IMG/VR virus record: IMGVR_UViG_3300021376_000006
DNA: 64,000 nucleotides
Direction: 5' to 3' (one strand)
Source of the DNA: a virus
Taxonomy: Duplodnaviria; Caudoviricetes
This document shows positions 1,943 to 57,630 of this stretch, one piece after another. Positions within the stretch are counted from its first letter, which is position 1. Each line of letters begins with the position of its first letter. The notes below the pieces were generated by a model, which was not told the origin of the DNA, made no database searches, and saw nothing but the letters and a program-made list of their open reading frames with translations. The position numbers and the translations under genes were made by a program.

Positions 1943-3259
1943 TTACATTTTTTCGCCTGCTCTAAATCCTCTAAACCGTAGGAAACGCGGAAACCGTAAA
2001 GAGTAAGTGCCATCTTGGTTTTGAGTAACAGCATCGGCACGTACTTCGGCAATGGTGCCCATAATCGTTTCACGACCCAACCAATAATCATCACGATTGG
2101 CATCACTAAAACCAGAACCCACATGTACACGTATTCTACGACCATCGTCCTCACCCTCACATATAATAGCACCCAGCCTGCCGGCATTACGACCGGTTCC
2201 TTGTTCAAAATCCACTACAGTCAAACTGACTTCAATAAATGGTTTGAGTTTGAGCCAGGCAGTGCTACGCTTGCACTCGTAGGGAGCAGCTGGATCCTTG
2301 ATCATGATGCCTTCGTACCCGCCTGCAATGGCACGTTGATTGATCTCACGAAATTGATCTTGACCTACCGCAGTATCTAAATCAATTGCTTCATAACTCA
2401 GCACCGTGACATTAGGCAAGGCATCTTGTACGGTGGCATACCATTCTTGCAACATAACACTACGATGTTCTTGTTGTGCAGAACTTGCACCACCGTTATT
2501 GAATTGTTCTAGTGTAAGGTAATCAAACAAGTTTAGAATAGCATCACCAGCAGCCACATTGTCCTTGCGATGTACCTGCTTCATGAGATCCTGAAAACTG
2601 CTGCTCATAATCTCACCATCTAGCACCATAGGTTCATTGAACCCGTGTGCTACTGCTGCCAGCTGTTCTTTGACATGTTCAAAGTTTACCAGCTCTTTGC
2701 CATTCCGGCTAAATTGAAGAACACGACCATCTGGCCAAACAATAGTAATAACACGCACACCATCCAACTTGACTTCAACAAGTTTTTGTCCTTGAAGTTT
2801 TCCTTCATGATTAGCACTATCGTGAGCAAGCTGGCAAGCGAAAGTAGGTACAATGTAATCTGCATTAATTTTCTCCACTGCTTTGTTGATGGTTTTTTCG
2901 CTAACACCACAGCGAAGATCTTTGATTAGAATACGTCGACACCATGAGTTCCATTCCGCTGGTGTAGCCATAGCCATGGCTCTCTGAACCAAATCTCTGG
3001 CATTGTTGCCTGTCGCTATCCTGCTGTTCAGTTGTGTACACAGTTCAAGGAACAGTTCGCGGCCTAGACCATCGCCTGTTGTATCTTTCTTTTCTGGAAC
3101 TTGTTTAAGCCCAAAAGTAATCATTGGATCCAGTGCCAATCTACAGCCTTCAAAAAACTCGTCGTGGCCTTGTACTGCAACTATAGCGATTACGGTTTCT
3201 TTGGCCAAGCGGCTATTATCTCGTTCTAGTTCTTGAACGATTTCCCATGGTTTACGCAT
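1943..3259 (-). CDS. lig: ATP-dependent DNA ligase
   Basis: EVKLDGVR (KxDGxR), DGEI, EGIMIK, WLKLK, SLRFPRF; start MRKPW with GGAG RBS. Confidence 0.95.
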   Translation of the reverse strand: MRKPWEIVQELERDNSRLAKETVIAIVAVQGHDEFFEGCRLALDPMITFGLKQVPEKKDTTGDGLGRELFLELCTQLNSRIATGNNARDLVQRAMAMATPAEWNSWCRRILIKDLRCGVSEKTINKAVEKINADYIVPTFACQLAHDSANHEGKLQGQKLVEVKLDGVRVITIVWPDGRVLQFSRNGKELVNFEHVKEQLAAVAHGFNEPMVLDGEIMSSSFQDLMKQVHRKDNVAAGDAILNLFDYLTLEQFNNGGASSAQQEHRSVMLQEWYATVQDALPNVTVLSYEAIDLDTAVGQDQFREINQRAIAGGYEGIMIKDPAAPYECKRSTAWLKLKPFIEVSLTVVDFEQGTGRNAGRLGAIICEGEDDGRRIRVHVGSGFSDANRDDYWLGRETIMGTIAEVRADAVTQNQDGTYSLRFPRFLRFRGFRAGEKM

Positions 3260-3659
3260 CTTGTAACTCCTTGATGTGGCGGCACGATTTACGAAATTGG
3301 AATCCTGGGCAAGTGCAGGTCCATGTGTTCTTGTTACGAATAACATTGTATCGGGATCCACGACTTCCGTCAACTGTCCAAACTTGGGTATCATCTTTCA
3401 CCGCTTGTTGCCTAGCTGTACGACCATCTGCGTATTCTACATTAGTAACCCGAGATAACGGAATTTCCCTGATACGTACAGGGCTGTCAAAATCTGTTAC
3501 GATTCTAACAAAATCTGGAGGAGTAAATTTTGTTGCTTTTTCAACAATACCAGTGATTGTTGTTTTGTTAACTGTTGCACTTCCTATAACATAGCTAGGA
3601 AATTCAAAAGTAATAGCAATTGTGCAACCCGCATCTGGAATAGAGAATTGTGTATTCAT
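3252..3659 (-). CDS. SWIM zinc-finger protein
   Basis: C-terminal WTCTCPGFQFRKSCRHIK. Confidence 0.75.
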   Translation of the reverse strand: MNTQFSIPDAGCTIAITFEFPSYVIGSATVNKTTITGIVEKATKFTPPDFVRIVTDFDSPVRIREIPLSRVTNVEYADGRTARQQAVKDDTQVWTVDGSRGSRYNVIRNKNTWTCTCPGFQFRKSCRHIKELQDA

Positions 3660-4050: not shown

Positions 4051-4407
4051 TTAACCAATTATTTCTCTAGGATAGTAAATTACATCTGGATCTTCAGACA
4101 GACATTGTAACCAATAATCAAATCTTGGATGATAAACAAAATCTTCCACAATTTGATACAAATAACCAACGTCAATTGTAACGGTAGTGCCATCTGACAT
4201 TGTAAATGTTTCTGTCAGATTTGGCATCTGTACTAAACGATTAAGTTGTACTTGTTCTTCTTGGTAAGCTTGAATATTTGTTAGATCTGACATAAATTCT
4301 TGAAATCGGTCAGGCGATAACCTAGTTTTTGCCCAAAAATCAAAATCAGCGCAATATTTTTTACCGTCTTTTATAAGTAGAGAATGAAGTAATCTAACAG
4401 TTATCAT
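4051..4407 (-). CDS. hypothetical protein (AT-rich)
   Basis: open frame, tandem with 3716..4039. Confidence 0.5.
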   Translation of the reverse strand: MITVRLLHSLLIKDGKKYCADFDFWAKTRLSPDRFQEFMSDLTNIQAYQEEQVQLNRLVQMPNLTETFTMSDGTTVTIDVGYLYQIVEDFVYHPRFDYWLQCLSEDPDVIYYPREIIG

Positions 4408-4454
4408 GTGTTTAATCCAATAATGATTATCACAGTATTTAGTTCAATTTTGAC

Positions 4455-4836
4455 ATCCAGCCACTTCTGTTACCGAGCAGGCTGGGTCCATCTCTGAGTC
4501 TTAGTTTAGCTTAGGCAGCTAAACGAACCTCAAACAGCTCATCATTGGCTGCATTTATGGTTTTGCTTCTTTTACGGAGATCGCCTACCGTGTTGTCCAT
4601 ATCCTTACTTATTGCCCTGTCGAAACCAAATTCAGGCCCATCAAAAAGCATTTTCAAGGTGTCCCTCTCCGATACAACGAGGAATCGCTAACCTTGTCTG
4701 CCTTCCCCACTCTTATCAGCTTCCTCATACTTACCGTGGTGGGTCGTTATATCATCGGGCAAAATGCTTTTTGGTGGACCTGCCCGGGGTCGAACCGGGG
4801 TCCAGAACACCTTTCATTCAACTTCATACAACAATT
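4455..4836 (-). ncRNA. ssrA: circularly permuted (two-piece) tmRNA; acceptor piece ~4836-4772, intervening segment 4771-4640, coding piece 4639-~4455
   Basis: T-arm CCCGG-TTCGACC-CCGGG then CAGGTCC-A-CCA ending at 4772 lies upstream of 5' end GGGCCTGAATTTGGTTTCGAC at 4639; acceptor stem has G3.U70; tag ORF 4552-4511 encodes AANDELFEVRLAA*; outer ends approximate. Confidence 0.9.
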
Positions 4837-4960
4837 TTAATCTTTATTTTCTTTGACCCATTTGTAATAGATCAGTACGCATGCTAGTGTTATGGAACCT
4901 ATTAATAATACGCCCAATAAAAAACCAACTATAAAGTAAAGCTGCTCGGTTCCAATTTAC

Positions 4961-5638
4961 TCACTTACGGTCTCCAAATAGTTGTAGGAGACTTAGAAAT
5001 ATATTTATAAAGTCAAGATACAGGGTTAAAGCACCACGAATTTCTGCTGTACCGTTATCAGTGTCGTAGCTGACTTCTTCACGGATTTTTTGAGTATCAT
5101 AAGCTGTTAAAACAGTAAAAATAATTATTGCCAGCGCACTTATTACCATTTGCATCACGCTGTTCTGAAGCCAAATATTAATTATACTGGCGATAATTAC
5201 AGTAATTAGACCAATCATGAAAAACTGTCCAATTGTGTCCAATGACCTTCGAGTAAAATATCCGTAAATGCTCATTACAGCGAACAGAATGCTTGCGCCA
5301 AAAAACGCTGAAGTGATACTACCTAGAGTGTAAACAACAAATATAGCACTAAAACTTAAACCCATTAATGCTGCAAATCCATGCAGCATAGCTATGGCCG
5401 CAGGTTTGGGTGGATTTTTAGCCAAAGCAAAACTGATTGCAAAAATTGCCGCCAAAGGTGCAAAAATTACCAACCATTTTACAGGTGTCCCGAACAAAAA
5501 TGTCATGGCAGCATGATTGTATCCAACCAATGCACTTACCATCATGCTTGTAATCACAGCCATGGCCATATGACCATACACAGCCAACATGGCATCATTA
5601 ATTTGAGTAGCACTACGAACAATTCTATTACTGTACAT
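4961..5638 (-). CDS. yccA: Bax inhibitor-1/YccA family membrane protein
   Basis: about 7 hydrophobic helices, AYDTQKI, ALTLYLDFINIFL signature. Confidence 0.9.
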   Translation of the reverse strand: MYSNRIVRSATQINDAMLAVYGHMAMAVITSMMVSALVGYNHAAMTFLFGTPVKWLVIFAPLAAIFAISFALAKNPPKPAAIAMLHGFAALMGLSFSAIFVVYTLGSITSAFFGASILFAVMSIYGYFTRRSLDTIGQFFMIGLITVIIASIINIWLQNSVMQMVISALAIIIFTVLTAYDTQKIREEVSYDTDNGTAEIRGALTLYLDFINIFLSLLQLFGDRK

Positions 5639-7858: not shown

Positions 7859-8260
7859 TTAGTTAGCAACCAGGCCTAGCTTGCGTAGTTCAACAGTAAA
7901 AGTGGGGCGGATCGTGGGATCTACTTCCAGTACTTCTGATCCGGCCATGTCCAATCGATCAGCAATATCTTTAGCTTCTTTGAGGCCGAGCCGTCTGCGA
8001 TCATAGGTACGAATACACTTGATCACAGCAAATTTGTCCCCCAGCTTGTTCACAAACGGATTCTTGACATTTATCTTGTCTCTGCGATAGTTGCCGGTCA
8101 ACATGGCCATAAATATCTCGCCTTTGAGATCCGGGTCAATGGTATCCGCAATCGTGGTCCACAATTCCATACCTTTATCAGCGCCATAGATATCAGCAAT
8201 GGTCTGCATGAATCCAATACCAGCGCCTACAAGATCTTCTCGGTGTTTTTCGGGTAGCAT
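7859..8260 (-). CDS. ribosomal protein bL12 (L7/L12) C-terminal-like domain protein
   Basis: KFAVIKCIRT...LGLKEAKDIAD resembles the bL12 CTD motif KI.VIK.VR...GLGLKEAKD.V. Confidence 0.6.
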   Translation of the reverse strand: MLPEKHREDLVGAGIGFMQTIADIYGADKGMELWTTIADTIDPDLKGEIFMAMLTGNYRRDKINVKNPFVNKLGDKFAVIKCIRTYDRRRLGLKEAKDIADRLDMAGSEVLEVDPTIRPTFTVELRKLGLVAN

Positions 8261-13717: not shown

Positions 13718-14083
13718 TTAAATTGCTATACGTTGTTGTCCGGCACGCCGCATTTCGCCGCGCATGATTGTTTTCATTACCAATGTGTCATTTATTTTGG
13801 CAACAGGCACTGTGATATCTGTTTCTAAATCAACCACATGAATTGCTACACCTTCGGGTAAATCTTTTAAAAATTTATGCCTTTTCAACAACAGCTTGCT
13901 AAAAAAATCTGCAACCTCGGCAATGCCGATAGGTTCGGTGTTTCTGGGATCGTTAATACGATCAACAAAATGTGTGGTAATTTTTACCGGTATATTGTAT
14001 GGTACGTATCTGGTGTTTAACACCTGGGTATAGTGCTTGGCCAGTTCAGCGTTGTTTTCTGTGAGAAATTCTTGCAAACGCAT
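13718..14083 (-). CDS. hypothetical protein with MRLQEFLTE N-terminus
   Basis: shared N-terminal motif; HFVDRINDPRN. Confidence 0.6.
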   Translation of the reverse strand: MRLQEFLTENNAELAKHYTQVLNTRYVPYNIPVKITTHFVDRINDPRNTEPIGIAEVADFFSKLLLKRHKFLKDLPEGVAIHVVDLETDITVPVAKINDTLVMKTIMRGEMRRAGQQRIAI

Positions 14084-16200
14084 TATGTTTTAATAATGAA
14101 GTTGATAGCCAGGTACGGAGGTAAGTTTTGATTTGTGCCGCTGACACCTGCAGAGTTTATTGTTACGCCGGTGCTGGCATAATCAGTCCAATTATAAAAA
14201 CTAGCATCTGTACCGGCGTCTGGACCTTCCCCAATCCATGGTTCATTTGGTCTAGCTTGATTAGGGGTGTTGCTAAGAACGGTGGTACTAGTTGGATTGC
14301 GTTCCCATGCTGCCGGTACCTCTGGGTCACCAGCATTAAGATAATCATTTATACCATAAAACAGAGCCCCACTCACAGGATCTCTTAATTGATGACGATG
14401 TGTAGGATCAGTGGTATTGTGACTGTGACTTACCACTACTGCATCTTTTGTGCCACCTGTGTTACCTATAGCATACAATGTGCCTGCGCCAACTGGCATT
14501 CTATTTCTGTAATCGGGCAGGTTAAATGTATTAACTCCGTCTCCGTTGCCAAAGGTGCTGCCAAGTATGGCAAACAATGCAGCATAGGTGGTTCTTGACA
14601 CTGCAAGGCCATTGCATAACAAGAATCCTGTAGGTGCAGACACTGTGGGCCACATCATCAAGCTGCCAGTAGGTACACTGTTGTTTTGTACAAAAGCAGT
14701 TGTAGCAACTGCGGTGTTAGATGTTCCCGGAGGCATAGTAGGAGTAAATATTTGTCCTCCTACGTGTAAATTTCCACCAAGACCTATACCTCCAGTAACA
14801 ACCAATGCACCGGTTGATGTTGATATAGCTGCTCTCGACGAACCTACAACTAGGTTGCCAGTCACTGCTAAATTTGCCGCGACCGAAGAATTGCCCGATA
14901 CAGTTAAATTGCCGCCCACTGAAGCAGTTAAACCAACATCCAATCTACCAGTTAAAGATACTGAATTGGCATGCATGGTATTCAACCGCATTCCTTGACT
15001 ACCAACATTTGAACTGATATTGGCGGTTGGGATCAAATCAGCACCCAAGTATATTGTTGCCACATTACTAACAGTAACAAAAGTATTTGCAGCATTTACA
15101 TTGCCTACTAAAATACTTTCTGAAAAAATGTTTTTAAAACGGTTAGTTGTATTTCCTAAGGTAAAAGTTACGTTTGCACTTGGGATAATATGGCCAAAGA
15201 AATTAGCAGTACCATTAACTAAACCCGACAGAATATCTACGTAATTTTTTGTAGCAAAAGTCAAAGCCGGAGATGAATTTGTTGGTTGTGCATATGCTTC
15301 GGCTAATCCTGTTTGATAATTGCCTCGTAAAAACGGTGTTTGCGTTCCGCCTGTTTTGAGACTTAATATAAAGTCGCGATTGTTAGTTTGATTGTGCAGC
15401 GTGACTGTGCCGCTAGTGACATTTGCAACAAAATCACTGGCTGCACCAAAAGTCAGGCCACCATCGTTTGTCAATGATAAAGATCCGTTAATAGATCCTG
15501 ACATGTTATTTCTTACGAATGTGTTACCAAACACAGCAACGTTGTTTACATATATAGATTGGGCAACTTCACTGTTACCCCAGAAAGTGTGTCCCAGTGT
15601 GCTGTTGAGATTGAGTCCCTTTTTTATAGTAGCAAAACCAGCTGTATCAGATGCAAAAGGACCGTCTTTGCTCCAGATACCCACTAATATATTGTCGATA
15701 AAAAATTTAATTACAACATAGGTAGTTGACGGTGGGGCATCTGTTACTGTGTCCGGGATAGCCCCTGAATTACCAGTGGCAAGTCTTGACAGAGGTCCTA
15801 CCAAGCGCCATTCAGTACCTGTATATATTTTAAGCTGTCCATTTGTAGTATCATACCACTGTTCACCAGTGTATGAGTTGGTCGGAGTTGATGCACTCAG
15901 AGTCATACCAGCCAAGGTTTTCCAAATGGCGTTGCCCGAGCCTTTAGTAGCAGCAACGTTAACACTTAAAAGTTTTGTAGTGCTGTTAAACCATAACTGT
16001 CCAGGAATAGGTGCAGACGGTTCTGTGGTTTTGGCAAAGTTTTCCATGAGTCTTACAAAGTTTTGATTTAAGAATAAACCATAACCTTTGTAATTTTTTC
16101 CTAATAGAACCAAGCTGGTATTGGCACTATCTGCGGTATTATCCAGCAAACCGCCCGCAATTAGATCTTCTCCGTTACTTAATGTAATATTATATGGCAT
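14083..16200 (-). CDS. tail fibre / baseplate fibre protein with tail-collar domain
   Basis: VLLGKNYKGYG...ENFA and GQLWFN/GEQWYD repeats, beta-rich repeats, collar VPTGSLMMW...GFLLCNG...TFNLPDYR, NLPPYLAINFIIK end. Confidence 0.85.
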   Translation of the reverse strand: MPYNITLSNGEDLIAGGLLDNTADSANTSLVLLGKNYKGYGLFLNQNFVRLMENFAKTTEPSAPIPGQLWFNSTTKLLSVNVAATKGSGNAIWKTLAGMTLSASTPTNSYTGEQWYDTTNGQLKIYTGTEWRLVGPLSRLATGNSGAIPDTVTDAPPSTTYVVIKFFIDNILVGIWSKDGPFASDTAGFATIKKGLNLNSTLGHTFWGNSEVAQSIYVNNVAVFGNTFVRNNMSGSINGSLSLTNDGGLTFGAASDFVANVTSGTVTLHNQTNNRDFILSLKTGGTQTPFLRGNYQTGLAEAYAQPTNSSPALTFATKNYVDILSGLVNGTANFFGHIIPSANVTFTLGNTTNRFKNIFSESILVGNVNAANTFVTVSNVATIYLGADLIPTANISSNVGSQGMRLNTMHANSVSLTGRLDVGLTASVGGNLTVSGNSSVAANLAVTGNLVVGSSRAAISTSTGALVVTGGIGLGGNLHVGGQIFTPTMPPGTSNTAVATTAFVQNNSVPTGSLMMWPTVSAPTGFLLCNGLAVSRTTYAALFAILGSTFGNGDGVNTFNLPDYRNRMPVGAGTLYAIGNTGGTKDAVVVSHSHNTTDPTHRHQLRDPVSGALFYGINDYLNAGDPEVPAAWERNPTSTTVLSNTPNQARPNEPWIGEGPDAGTDASFYNWTDYASTGVTINSAGVSGTNQNLPPYLAINFIIKT

Positions 16201-53545: not shown

Positions 53546-53860
53546 TTATGTTTCTTGATGATCAAATCTGCCGCAAACTATGTCATAAAATTCGTCTAGT
53601 TCGCCGCCCCACTTGCCTTTGAGATATGGACGTAAGTCGTAGCACAGTTTTGCGTTTTTGTCTTTGTTGGCCTGTACAAATGTATTGTGTAGCTTTTTCC
53701 AGTGATCCAGTTTAACAACTTCTTCTAACGGAATTTGATCTCCGGGCACTACACAAAATGTTTCTAATATTTGTCCTTCTACATCGTGTGGTTCTAGTTC
53801 AAGAACAGTGTATCTTTCACTTAATTCTTCTGCTATTTGTCTATTAAAAATAATATCCAT
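53546..53860 (-). CDS. hypothetical phage protein
   Basis: YTVLELE...L.GKWGGELDEFY. Confidence 0.65.
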   Translation of the reverse strand: MDIIFNRQIAEELSERYTVLELEPHDVEGQILETFCVVPGDQIPLEEVVKLDHWKKLHNTFVQANKDKNAKLCYDLRPYLKGKWGGELDEFYDIVCGRFDHQET

Positions 53861-54396
53861 TATCGTTTTTTTACTCCTACTATTTTGTATATATGCTGTA
53901 CAGCTCTAGCCTGATAATAACAATCAATCAATGCATTGTGAGCACCGTGTCTGTTTTTTTCTCTTGGATCACCATGAACACTAAACAATGTACGGCTGTC
54001 TCTTATCTGCCAAAATTGCCACGGAGTCGGACGACCAACTTGTCTATATAGATCTTCTAGTATAACAATGTCAAAAGCAGGTCCTTGACACCAAATATTA
54101 TCTGCACCAACCAAAAAGCGATTGAGCTGATCCAACATATCATTTACACTTATGCGACCATCCATGCCCATAGCTTCTTCTCTTACTTCTTCAGTTTGTG
54201 TTCCCCACCAGGCAACTGTTTCGTCTTGAACGTGTCGGTCCATAGATAGTTGTTCGTCAACATCTGGTTTTAAGTATAGGCCTTGACCTTGATCAACATC
54301 CGACTCCCAGGGGCTAAACTTGACTGCGCCGAAAGTTAAAATAACTGACCATGGTCTTGTGCTCAGCGTTTCAAGATCCAGCATTACATCCATCAT
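53860..54396 (-). CDS. DEDDh 3'-5' exonuclease
   Basis: LDLETL, FDIVIL, HNALIDC. Confidence 0.85.
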   Translation of the reverse strand: MMDVMLDLETLSTRPWSVILTFGAVKFSPWESDVDQGQGLYLKPDVDEQLSMDRHVQDETVAWWGTQTEEVREEAMGMDGRISVNDMLDQLNRFLVGADNIWCQGPAFDIVILEDLYRQVGRPTPWQFWQIRDSRTLFSVHGDPREKNRHGAHNALIDCYYQARAVQHIYKIVGVKKR

Positions 54397-55229: not shown

Positions 55230-55667
55230 CTACTTAGCGAATGTAATTGCAATCTTCTTGGGCTTTTGTTCTTCGGGAACAATATGCTCCAAACTAACTG
55301 CCAAAATACCATTAATTACTGTAGCGCCTTTAACTTCCACATTGTCAGCTAAAGTAAAATGACGAGTGAAAGTTCTTGCACTGATGCCACGGTGCAAGTA
55401 TTCGTATTCATCTTTTTGCTTTTGTTCGCCTCGAATCGTTAGAACATTTTCTTTGTATTCAATATCAAGTTCATCTTCACTGAAGCCAGCAACCGCTAGT
55501 TGGATGGCATAGTGATTTTCGTCAATTCGAACAATGTTGTGAGGCGGATAGTTGTCGGCTTTACTATTGGCAAAAGTGCGTCCTAGTTCGTTGAACAATC
55601 TATCAAAGCCTACAGCATGGCGATGAAGTGTTGGTAAATCAAAAGTGCTAATTGTATAAGTTGTCAT
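55230..55667 (-). CDS. small heat-shock protein Hsp20 (IbpA-like)
   Basis: GFDRLF, YPPHNI, LAVAGF, YLHRGIS.R.F, NGIL. Confidence 0.92.
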   Translation of the reverse strand: MTTYTISTFDLPTLHRHAVGFDRLFNELGRTFANSKADNYPPHNIVRIDENHYAIQLAVAGFSEDELDIEYKENVLTIRGEQKQKDEYEYLHRGISARTFTRHFTLADNVEVKGATVINGILAVSLEHIVPEEQKPKKIAITFAK

Positions 55668-55743: not shown

Positions 55744-57630
55744 TTACGGCTTTTCTGTAAACTCAGCATCTACTACATTGTCATCTGCAGTGGGCTTTAC
55801 AGATTGCTCTGTAGTTGACGGCTGTTTTGCTTCGTTGATTGCATTTGAGGCAACAAACAATTCAGTCAATTTTGTTGTAATTGCTTCTCGGTCTGTGCCT
55901 GCAATGGCTTGTTCTAGTTCACTTATTTTATCGTTTATTGTCTTCGTCTGATCTTCTGCGAGTTTGCCCCCAACTTCTTTCAGATCAGTTCTTACTTGGT
56001 GGATCACTGAATCCGCTTGGTTACGAGTTTCAATGAGCTCTAGTTGCTTTCGATCCGCAGCGGCATTTGTTTCAGCATCGCGAATCATCGCCTCAATCTG
56101 TTCTTGACTTAGACCACTATCAGATTTAATGGTAATCCGATTTTCTTTGCCAGTTTTTTTGTCTCGAGCACTTACTTTAAGAATGCCATTTGCATCTACA
56201 TCTAGAACAACTTCAATTTGGGGCATACCTCTAGGTGCAGGATCGATACCTTCTAAATTAAATTCGCCTAGCAGTTTGTTGTGCTGTACTAGTTCACGTT
56301 CACCTTGATAGACTTTGATAGTAACTGCAGGCTGATTGTCTTCAGCTGTGCTGAACACTTGACTATGCTTGGTAGGAATAGTTGTATTCTTTGGTATTAG
56401 TTTGGTCATCACTCCGCCCATGGTTTCAATACCTAGGCTCAGTGGGGTAACATCAAGTAATAGCACATCTTTACGATCACCACCTAGTACAGCACCTTGT
56501 ACTGCTGCTCCGGCTGCTACTGCTTCATCTGGATTAACATCACGACGTGGTGCTCGTCCGAATAACTGTTCAACCGCTTCTTGCACTTTGGGCATACGTG
56601 TTTGGCCACCAACTAAAATAATCTCATCTATATCGCCGGCAGTTACTCCAGCATCTTGCATTGCTGTACGGCATGGTTCGATGGTACGCTGAATTAGATC
56701 ATCAACTAGACTTTCTAATTTGGCTCGAGTAATTTTAATGTTAAGATGTTTTGGACCAGTGGCATCAGCAGTGATGTAAGGTAAGTTTACATCTGTTTGT
56801 GTGTTGTTGGACAACTCAATCTTGGTACGCTCGGCAGCTTCTTTTAGTCGCTGTAGCGCCATTACGTCTCGGCCGAGATTAACTCCAGATTCCTTCTTAA
56901 ATTCAGTAATAAGGTAATCCATAATGCGTTGATCAAAATCTTCGCCTCCTAGGAATGTATCCCCATTGGTGCTAAGTACTTCGAATTGTTTATCACCATC
57001 CACATCAGCGATGTCGATAATAGATATATCAAAGGTACCGCCACCAAGATCATACACAGCAATTTTACGGTCTTTTTTGTCACTCTTGTCTGCTCCATAT
57101 GCCAGGGCTGCTGCCGTTGGCTCGTTGATTATACGTAATACCTCAAGTCCAGCAATAGCACCCGCATCTTTGGTGGCCTGACGCTGGCTATCATTGAAAT
57201 ATGCAGGGACTGTAATTACTGCTCGTGTTACTTCGTGCCCAAGATAGTCTTCAGCGGTCTTTTTCATCTTGCGTAGCACTTCAGCTGAGATTTGCGGAGG
57301 CGCCAGTTCTTGGCCGTTGGCCTGTACCCAAGCATCACCGTTCTTGCTCTCCATGATTTCATAGGGCATGAGATTGATGTCTTTTTGTACAGCCTGCTCC
57401 ATGAACTTGCGTCCGATCAGTCGCTTGGCAGCATAGATAGTGTTCTTGGGATTGGTTACAGCCTGACGTTTGGCGCCAGCGCCTACCAGAACTTCGTCTG
57501 AGGTATAGGCCACAATGCTGGGCGTAGTACGTGCGCCTTCTGAATTTTCAATTATTTTAGGGATTCCGTTTTCGACAACTGCTACGCAGCTATTGGTGGT
57601 ACCAAGATCAATACCAATGATAGTACTCAT
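55744..57630 (-). CDS. dnaK: chaperone DnaK (Hsp70)
   Basis: [45 protein letters not shown] near end. Confidence 0.98.

Follow-up and report, generated by a model that had tools for sequence, protein, structure and literature searches.

The window, the whole 64-kb stretch of viral DNA analysed in this work (IMG/VR record IMGVR_UViG_3300021376_000006, Caudoviricetes), carries 96 of the 114 ORFs of a simple non-overlapping set on the minus strand. The annotated genes include an ATP-dependent, phage-type DNA ligase (1943-3394), a tail-collar fibre protein (14083-16200), an endonuclease and radical SAM enzymes. Three further genes on the minus strand code for an Rv2179c-like 3'-5' exoribonuclease (53860-54396), an Hsp20 (55230-55667) and a full-length DnaK (55744-57630), the latter being most similar to the DnaKs of huge uncultured phages and proteobacteria. 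Between the ligase and the tail fibre genes lies a circularly permuted tmRNA (ssrA) gene, also on the minus strand; ARAGORN, one of the checks proposed in the initial annotation, called a permuted tmRNA (tmRNA*) at 4420-4864 with the tag peptide AANDELFEVRLAA, this being the sole gene that the program reported in the whole window. The gene located just upstream (4961-5638, minus strand) codes for a membrane protein of the Bax1-I family (PF01027, 182 bits), which is the family of E. coli YccA, a modulator of the FtsH protease. This adjacency is not conserved, as other genes occupy the position in L127, the nearest relative of the window. Taken as a set, the exoribonuclease, Hsp20, DnaK and tmRNA genes look like a protein and RNA quality-control kit.

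Organization of the permuted tmRNA gene

Two Rfam models recognized the locus. The permuted tmRNA model RF04321 (tmRNA_permuted) scored 130.1 bits (E 3.7e-25) against a gathering score of 47, with the alignment covering model positions 1-213 of 213, and RF01850 (beta_tmRNA) scored 98.2 bits (E 1.3e-28) against a gathering score of 84, a modest margin accompanied by a poor alignment of the model ends, where the 5' leader and 3' hairpin matches are weak. A tmRNA feature is present at this locus far beyond chance. Direct reading of positions 4300-5000 on the minus strand showed that the acceptor 5' strand is preceded by the T arm, the 3' strand of the acceptor stem and ACCA; the CCA end lies at 4772 and G1 at 4639, on the same strand and separated by 132 nt, which constitutes a circular permutation. 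The initial annotation had placed a 3' half ending at 4772 before a 5' half beginning with GGGCCTG at 4639 and followed by the tag ORF, and this order is correct to the base.

The tRNA-Ala-like domain is complete, with a 7-bp acceptor stem, the discriminator A73, an encoded CCA and a T arm whose loop is of the GGUUCGA type. The acceptor stem, described earlier as fully paired and carrying G3.U70, indeed forms seven out of seven pairs upon direct reading of the sequence, with G4637.U4778 corresponding to the G3.U70 alanine determinant. The acceptor piece, of about 65 nt (4772..4836, minus strand; 5' end approximate), was delimited by Rfam alignment and conservation in L127; it comprises the T arm and the encoded ACCA together with the 5' strands of P2 and the 3' strand of the acceptor stem. 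Sequence reading and the Rfam alignment place the T arm at 4783..4799, where the T stem is formed by CCCGG (4799-4795) and CCGGG (4787-4783), enclosing the T loop UUCGACC (4794-4788). These are followed at 4772..4782 by the acceptor 3' strand CAGGUCC (4782-4776), the discriminator A4775 and CCA (4774-4772), whereas the acceptor 5' strand GGGCCUG, in which G4637 is G3, is found at 4633..4639; both strands were assigned from the sequence and the Rfam alignment. The P2 region, as aligned by Rfam, consists of an outer helix pairing UGUUG (4833-4829) with CAACA (4595-4591) and an inner helix pairing UGU-U-CUG (4809-4803) with CAG-G-GCA (4619-4613). The 4-bp middle P2 helix modelled by Rfam (4815-4812 with 4604-4601) is unpaired in the window in both the RF04321 and the RF01850 alignments.

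The coding piece, of about 183 nt (4457..4639, minus strand), was defined from the sequence, the Rfam alignment and the comparison with L127; it contains the acceptor 5' strand, a D-loop analogue, the P2 3' strands, pseudoknot 1, the tag frame, the P5 hairpin and a 3'-terminal hairpin. Pseudoknot 1 (4565..4590), supported by compensatory changes relative to close relatives, is built of stem 1 (4590-4588 with 4577-4575) and stem 2 (4584-4583 with 4566-4565, plus 4580-4578 with 4570-4568). The tag frame (4511..4552), located by ARAGORN and Rfam, has 13 codons encoding AANDELFEVRLAA, from the resume codon GCA (4552-4550) to the stop codon UAA (4513-4511), and its product keeps the canonical AANDE at the N-terminus and LAA at the C-terminus. 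P5 (4504..4524), a hairpin with an 8-bp stem (GUUUAGCU/AGCUAAAC) recovered by Rfam alignment and folding, contains the stop codon, which extends from the loop into the first base of the 3' strand. At the end of the piece, folding and the comparison with L127 define the terminal hairpin CCAGCC...GGCUGG (4457..4485), which has no U run in the window and is followed by UUUU in L127. The architecture is of the beta type, with a single pseudoknot and without PK2-PK4, in the same layout as that of the bacterial beta-type genes examined.

A scan for transcription signals yielded no convincing promoter or terminator for the tmRNA gene, and the terminator scan gave nothing at the 3'-terminal hairpin (4457..4485). 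The sole promoter match, TTGGAA-16-TATAGT (4955-4928), is weak and not conserved in L127, and was therefore not retained. A 10-bp pairing of the tag start (4549-4540) with 4424-4415, present in the predicted fold and absent from L127, was treated as fortuitous, and a plus-strand ORF antisense to the tmRNA (4612-4887, 91 aa) was treated as spurious.

The two pieces are separated by an intervening segment of 132 nt (4640..4771, minus strand), lying between CCA and G1, which would be removed upon maturation. This spacer (4771-4640) folds as a rod (-36.8 kcal/mol, z -2.57) whose ends are predicted to form a stem of about 11 bp extending the acceptor stem, and the UGAU leader directly 5' of G1 is conserved. 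In sequence, the segment shares no homology with the spacers of L127 (53 nt) and other clade members (64-118 nt), which are likewise closed by a stem; among the viral permuted genes listed, spacers range from 4 to 211 nt, a range in which 132 nt is on the long side without being exceptional. Rfam, searched permissively over 4300-5000, gave no family inside the spacer and no riboswitch. A 24-codon frame starting at ATG 4728 was rejected as a gene, having no clear ribosome-binding site and having its ninth codon changed to a stop in one 93%-identical variant contig (of low depth); a conserved inner structure was rejected as well, since the differences in variant contigs hit paired positions of the predicted fold without compensation. 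The closing stem is the sole feature of the spacer that looks selected. In another clade member, L126, the spacer (89 nt, about 8145-8233) begins with AAGGAG followed by six bases and ATG, and may hold a small gene, which is not the case for the gene of the window.

Viral relatives, covariation and selection

A degenerate pattern of the T arm and acceptor end retrieved at least 120 contigs from IMG/VR; among those listed, ARAGORN called 102 permuted and 8 standard tmRNAs. Many of these viral genes are located centrally in contigs of 100-380 kb, frequently close to tRNA clusters. Their tags range from 10 to 31 residues, and those of 26-31 residues (tmRNA loci L011, L019, L029, L037, L044, L055 and L077) appear to consist of a canonical ANDExFALAA-type tag preceded by an additional N-terminal block (e.g., ANADTFDF or ANVSTFKF). 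Furthermore, ARAGORN detected tRNAs with a CUA anticodon, labelled 'Pyl' by the program, within a few kb of some viral permuted tmRNAs (L006 5061-5137; L056 672-748 and 984-1059; L073 1932-2007; L077 4617-4690). These are possible amber suppressors and hint at TAG recoding in the corresponding phages. GenBank phages gathered in INPHARED gave no match to the gene with its flanks at an E-value of 1e-5, no megablast match to 20 kb, and no match to the 5' part of the coding piece even at an E-value of 1.

The closest of the viral relatives is L127, a 62.5-kb IMG/VR contig collinear with the window, which harbors the tmRNA in the syntenic position. Similarity begins at about 4841 and stops at 4457, in agreement with the limits of 4455-4836 originally assigned to the feature. 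Between the two contigs, the acceptor piece is 97% and the coding piece (4457-4646) 93% identical, as compared to 67-83% for the flanking genes, making the tmRNA the best-conserved segment of the syntenic region, a pattern that shows purifying selection. Both contigs encode the same tag peptide, the one codon change (GCC to GCU in L127) being synonymous, and the 132-nt spacer is replaced by an unrelated segment of 53 nt, again closed by a stem. Compensatory changes are seen in pseudoknot 1: among the window, L127 and other clade members, the pair G4589-C4576 of stem 1 is replaced by A-U, and UCU/AGA of stem 2 by UGA/UCA or CGA/UCG.

Covariation in homologues, whose absence from the acceptor/coding pairings had initially been named as a refuting result, was assessed on 84 unique viral sequences among the matches listed, using as controls the same helices with one partner slid by 1-3 columns. 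The P2 outer helix is paired in 98% of the cases, with 2-5 pair types per position, compared to 25-34% in the slid controls; of the inner helix, the first part (inner-a) is 98% paired and the second (inner-b) is 100% paired and invariant, with the outer three inner pairs covarying. The T stem is 100% paired, showing up to four pair types at its variable positions; for P2 and T stem overall, the slid controls were 25-73% paired. The acceptor stem covaries at two positions, full pairing there being the criterion by which the set was selected. The stems of pseudoknot 1 are less uniform, with 66-73% pairing against 10-49% in the slid controls, and the middle P2 helix, at 36%, is paired no better than its controls. 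Taken together, the conservation in L127, the compensation in the pseudoknot, the covariation of P2 and T stem and the distribution of the clade, described below, provide good evidence for a selected, structured RNA belonging to the phage lineage.

In order to delimit the clade, its signature was defined as the exact combination of T stem and acceptor found in the tRNA domain of the window. This signature occurs in 13 IMG/VR contigs and has no exact match in 185,579 species genomes. These figures bear on the possibility that the gene was taken up from a host and is carried passively or in decay, or that it remains from integration at ssrA, in either case devoid of any role for the phage. Such an origin has precedents, given that phages integrating at ssrA carry ssrA fragments (discussed in PMC9004378), and the same structural type is present in Burkholderiales bacteria. 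The gene of the window, however, is complete rather than a 3' fragment, it accumulates compensatory changes within the best-conserved segment of its region, its signature is restricted to viral contigs in the collections searched, and no integrase was found among the annotated ORFs of the window. We therefore regard a captured remnant as very unlikely.

Phage context and bacterial counterparts

The tmRNA gene is encoded by the phage: it is located among phage genes and is conserved in related viral contigs. That the gene passes the threshold of the beta_tmRNA model, which derives from bacterial sequences, could be taken to mean that the locus is cellular DNA, or part of a chimeric assembly, and the gene a bacterium's own ssrA. 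Against this, the phage genes mentioned above, namely the ligase and the tail fibre, lie on both sides, the same tmRNA occurs in the same gene order in L127, and a 3-kb stretch extending over both tmRNA flanks is complete in many lake metagenome runs; more generally, lake-water metagenome runs from 2018 contain the surrounding DNA in full, their number being at least 12 and mostly at least 22. Since the bacterial genome collection also holds no exact match to the clade signature, a cellular origin of this DNA appears extremely improbable. The initial claim of a phage-located, circularly permuted tmRNA is thus borne out by ARAGORN, the two Rfam models, the surrounding phage genes and the syntenic copy.

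Among bacteria, when the same acceptor strand was allowed with any T stem, permuted genes were found only in seven Cupriavidus contigs. Cupriavidus genomes (L133-L139; G006-G008) have one or two beta-type permuted genes besides a full standard tmRNA, and one copy lies near a transposase; PHROG matches around one Cupriavidus locus correspond to a transposase and unknowns. The three Cupriavidus genomes tested also carry a full standard tmRNA (216-225 bits), and their permuted genes are therefore extra copies, possibly of an accessory or mobile nature. Of 151 genomes sampled evenly across the order Burkholderiales, 4 passed the beta_tmRNA cut-off; three of these four had no standard tmRNA over the cut-off, so that the permuted gene is apparently their sole ssrA. 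A separate case is a Patescibacteria MAG contig (L132, 5615-6001), which encodes a standard tmRNA with the tag AVAKNMFSAPAFAPAFA and a 3' end fitting the beta-type T-arm/acceptor pattern.

The UGAU leader recurs in the sampled bacterial beta-type genes, whose spacers measure about 30-45 nt and whose conserved blocks show 76-84% identity to the window. The phage gene is thus a clear member of the beta structural type that is not close to any sampled bacterium. Its resemblance to the betaproteobacterial two-piece tmRNA (Sharkady and Williams, 2004, as presented in PMC9004378) includes the order of acceptor piece, spacer and coding piece, the P2/T-arm/acceptor design, pseudoknot 1 and the lack of PK2-PK4, as well as a tag of the ANDE..LAA type and the UGAU leader, seen in a bacterial example. 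It differs in being borne by a phage, in its 132-nt spacer as opposed to the shorter bacterial ones, in a tag with an extra Ala codon and a FEVR insertion, and in a T-stem/acceptor combination found in none of the 185,579 species genomes.

Among phages, the tmRNAs known in 2014 were one-piece or TLD-only (PMC4131195), and huge phages with tmRNAs and SmpB were reported in 2020 (PMC7162821). The gene of the window resembles the one-piece tmRNAs of cluster C mycobacteriophages (e.g., Bxz1) and Bacillus phage G in being an ssrA gene of a large phage; those phages also carry many tRNA genes, and their tmRNA genes, unlike that of the window, have the standard order and produce a single RNA (PMC4131195). 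For the OM43 phage Melnitz, a two-piece tmRNA was described by Buchholz et al. (2022), who found that 53 of 133 unique phage tmRNAs were permuted according to ARAGORN, 50 of them aquatic (PMC9004378), and a tmRNA database from 2025 lists 79 phage sequences (PMC11915505). The statement in the initial annotation that phage tmRNAs are mostly one-piece was accurate as of 2014 (PMC4131195) and had been overtaken by 2022 (PMC9004378). Aquatic myophages (Melnitz, pelagimyophages and cyanophages) share with the window a complete permuted ssrA in a large, lytic-type aquatic phage, no phage SmpB is reported nearby, and the role proposed for their gene is to keep the hijacked translation running (PMC9004378). 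The gene of Melnitz, in contrast, is of the alphaproteobacterial type and is accompanied by a glutamine riboswitch (PMC9004378), while that of the window is of the beta type, comes from a lake and has no riboswitch.

Proposed function and significance

The experimental model for the processing considered here is the two-piece tmRNA of Caulobacter, in which, according to the account in PMC9004378 of Keiler, Shapiro and Williams (2000), a single precursor yields two RNAs by cleavage, and these remain base-paired and act in tagging. As presented there, that gene is chromosomal and arose by an independent, alpha-type permutation, with another break point and pseudoknot content. By analogy, the phage gene would yield one precursor, its transcription probably accompanying or directly following that of the upstream gene, in which the 3' trailer behind CCA would pair with the 5' leader in front of G1 to form the stem that closes the 132-nt spacer. 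With a cut by the RNase P of the host at G1 (4639) and processing of the 3' end to expose CCA (4772), two pieces would result, the acceptor piece (about 65 nt) and the coding piece (about 183 nt), and these would stay joined by the acceptor stem and P2.

Aminoacylation requires a free 3' CCA. A working RNA must therefore be cut after 4772, and together with the RNase P cut at G1 this would result in two pieces. Contigs from RNA libraries, which possibly derive from DNA and do not show the ends, cover the mature parts, some of them including a spacer. Runs of RNA type contain small shares of the locus, and none of the runs with good coverage of it is recorded as RNA.

The initial annotation suggested that the phage may run its own trans-translation, a wording that proves too strong with respect to SmpB. 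A tblastn search of the 64-kb window with E. coli SmpB gave a best E-value of 2.6, no tblastn match to SmpB was obtained in the 120 viral tmRNA loci listed, and none of five large virus records carrying related tmRNAs, of which three are complete, contains PF01668. Given that no SmpB was found in the window, the RNA most likely depends on the SmpB, AlaRS and RNase P of the host. Once charged by host AlaRS through G3.U70 and A73, the RNA would be brought by the SmpB and EF-Tu of the host to ribosomes that have stalled on broken mRNAs. With GCA 4552 as the resume codon, the nascent chain would then receive the tag AANDELFEVRLAA, and the LAA end of this tag would target the product to Clp-type proteolysis. 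The likely benefit for the phage would be extra ribosome-rescue capacity during infection, while mRNAs are being cut.

The lack of an SmpB gene in the window and in the five related records would also suit an RNA acting as a decoy or competitor, which would titrate host SmpB or displace host tmRNA, for example blunting a host response, without selection for tagging. A TLD-only tmRNA is known in mycobacteriophage DS6A, inhibition of tmRNA by a similar molecule has been described (PMC4131195), and the wide variation of related viral tags, from 10 to 31 residues, would be compatible with this role. A pure decoy, however, needs no tag features, and their intactness in the window counts against it: the gene retains an intact tag frame, resume-codon context, pseudoknot 1 and stop codon at the P5 loop, the AANDE start and the LAA end are kept, and L127 encodes the same peptide despite a nucleotide change. 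A decoy role is accordingly considered unlikely, although less so than the captured remnant. With the integration of these findings, we consider it probable that the phage bears, at this locus, a functional ssrA gene in circularly permuted form and of the beta type, acting together with host factors.

Two-piece tmRNAs of phages are already published and are common in virus catalogues, hence the gene of the window is a good example and not a discovery, and it opens no new question, the phenomenon being abundant in IMG/VR. It adds a clean, well-bounded freshwater example of the beta type to the phage two-piece tmRNAs described from marine phages, and the natural comparison offered by L127 maps the mature ends and supports pseudoknot 1. 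Furthermore, the gene supports the view that large phages top up the ribosome-rescue capacity of their hosts and yet depend on host SmpB. More tentatively, and with a probability that we regard as rather low, the gene could belong to a clade of beta-type two-piece tmRNAs that has long evolved inside lake phages rather than having been captured recently from a host, with a nearly frozen tRNA-like core, a spacer serving as an exchangeable slot, and a tag diversifying between 10 and 31 residues. If this were true, the spacers of 53-132 nt, unrelated in sequence, would be exchangeable, that of L126 including a ribosome-binding site and ATG, and phages would tune the fate of tagged proteins to their own ends, perhaps in conjunction with the chaperone genes that the phage of the window also carries.
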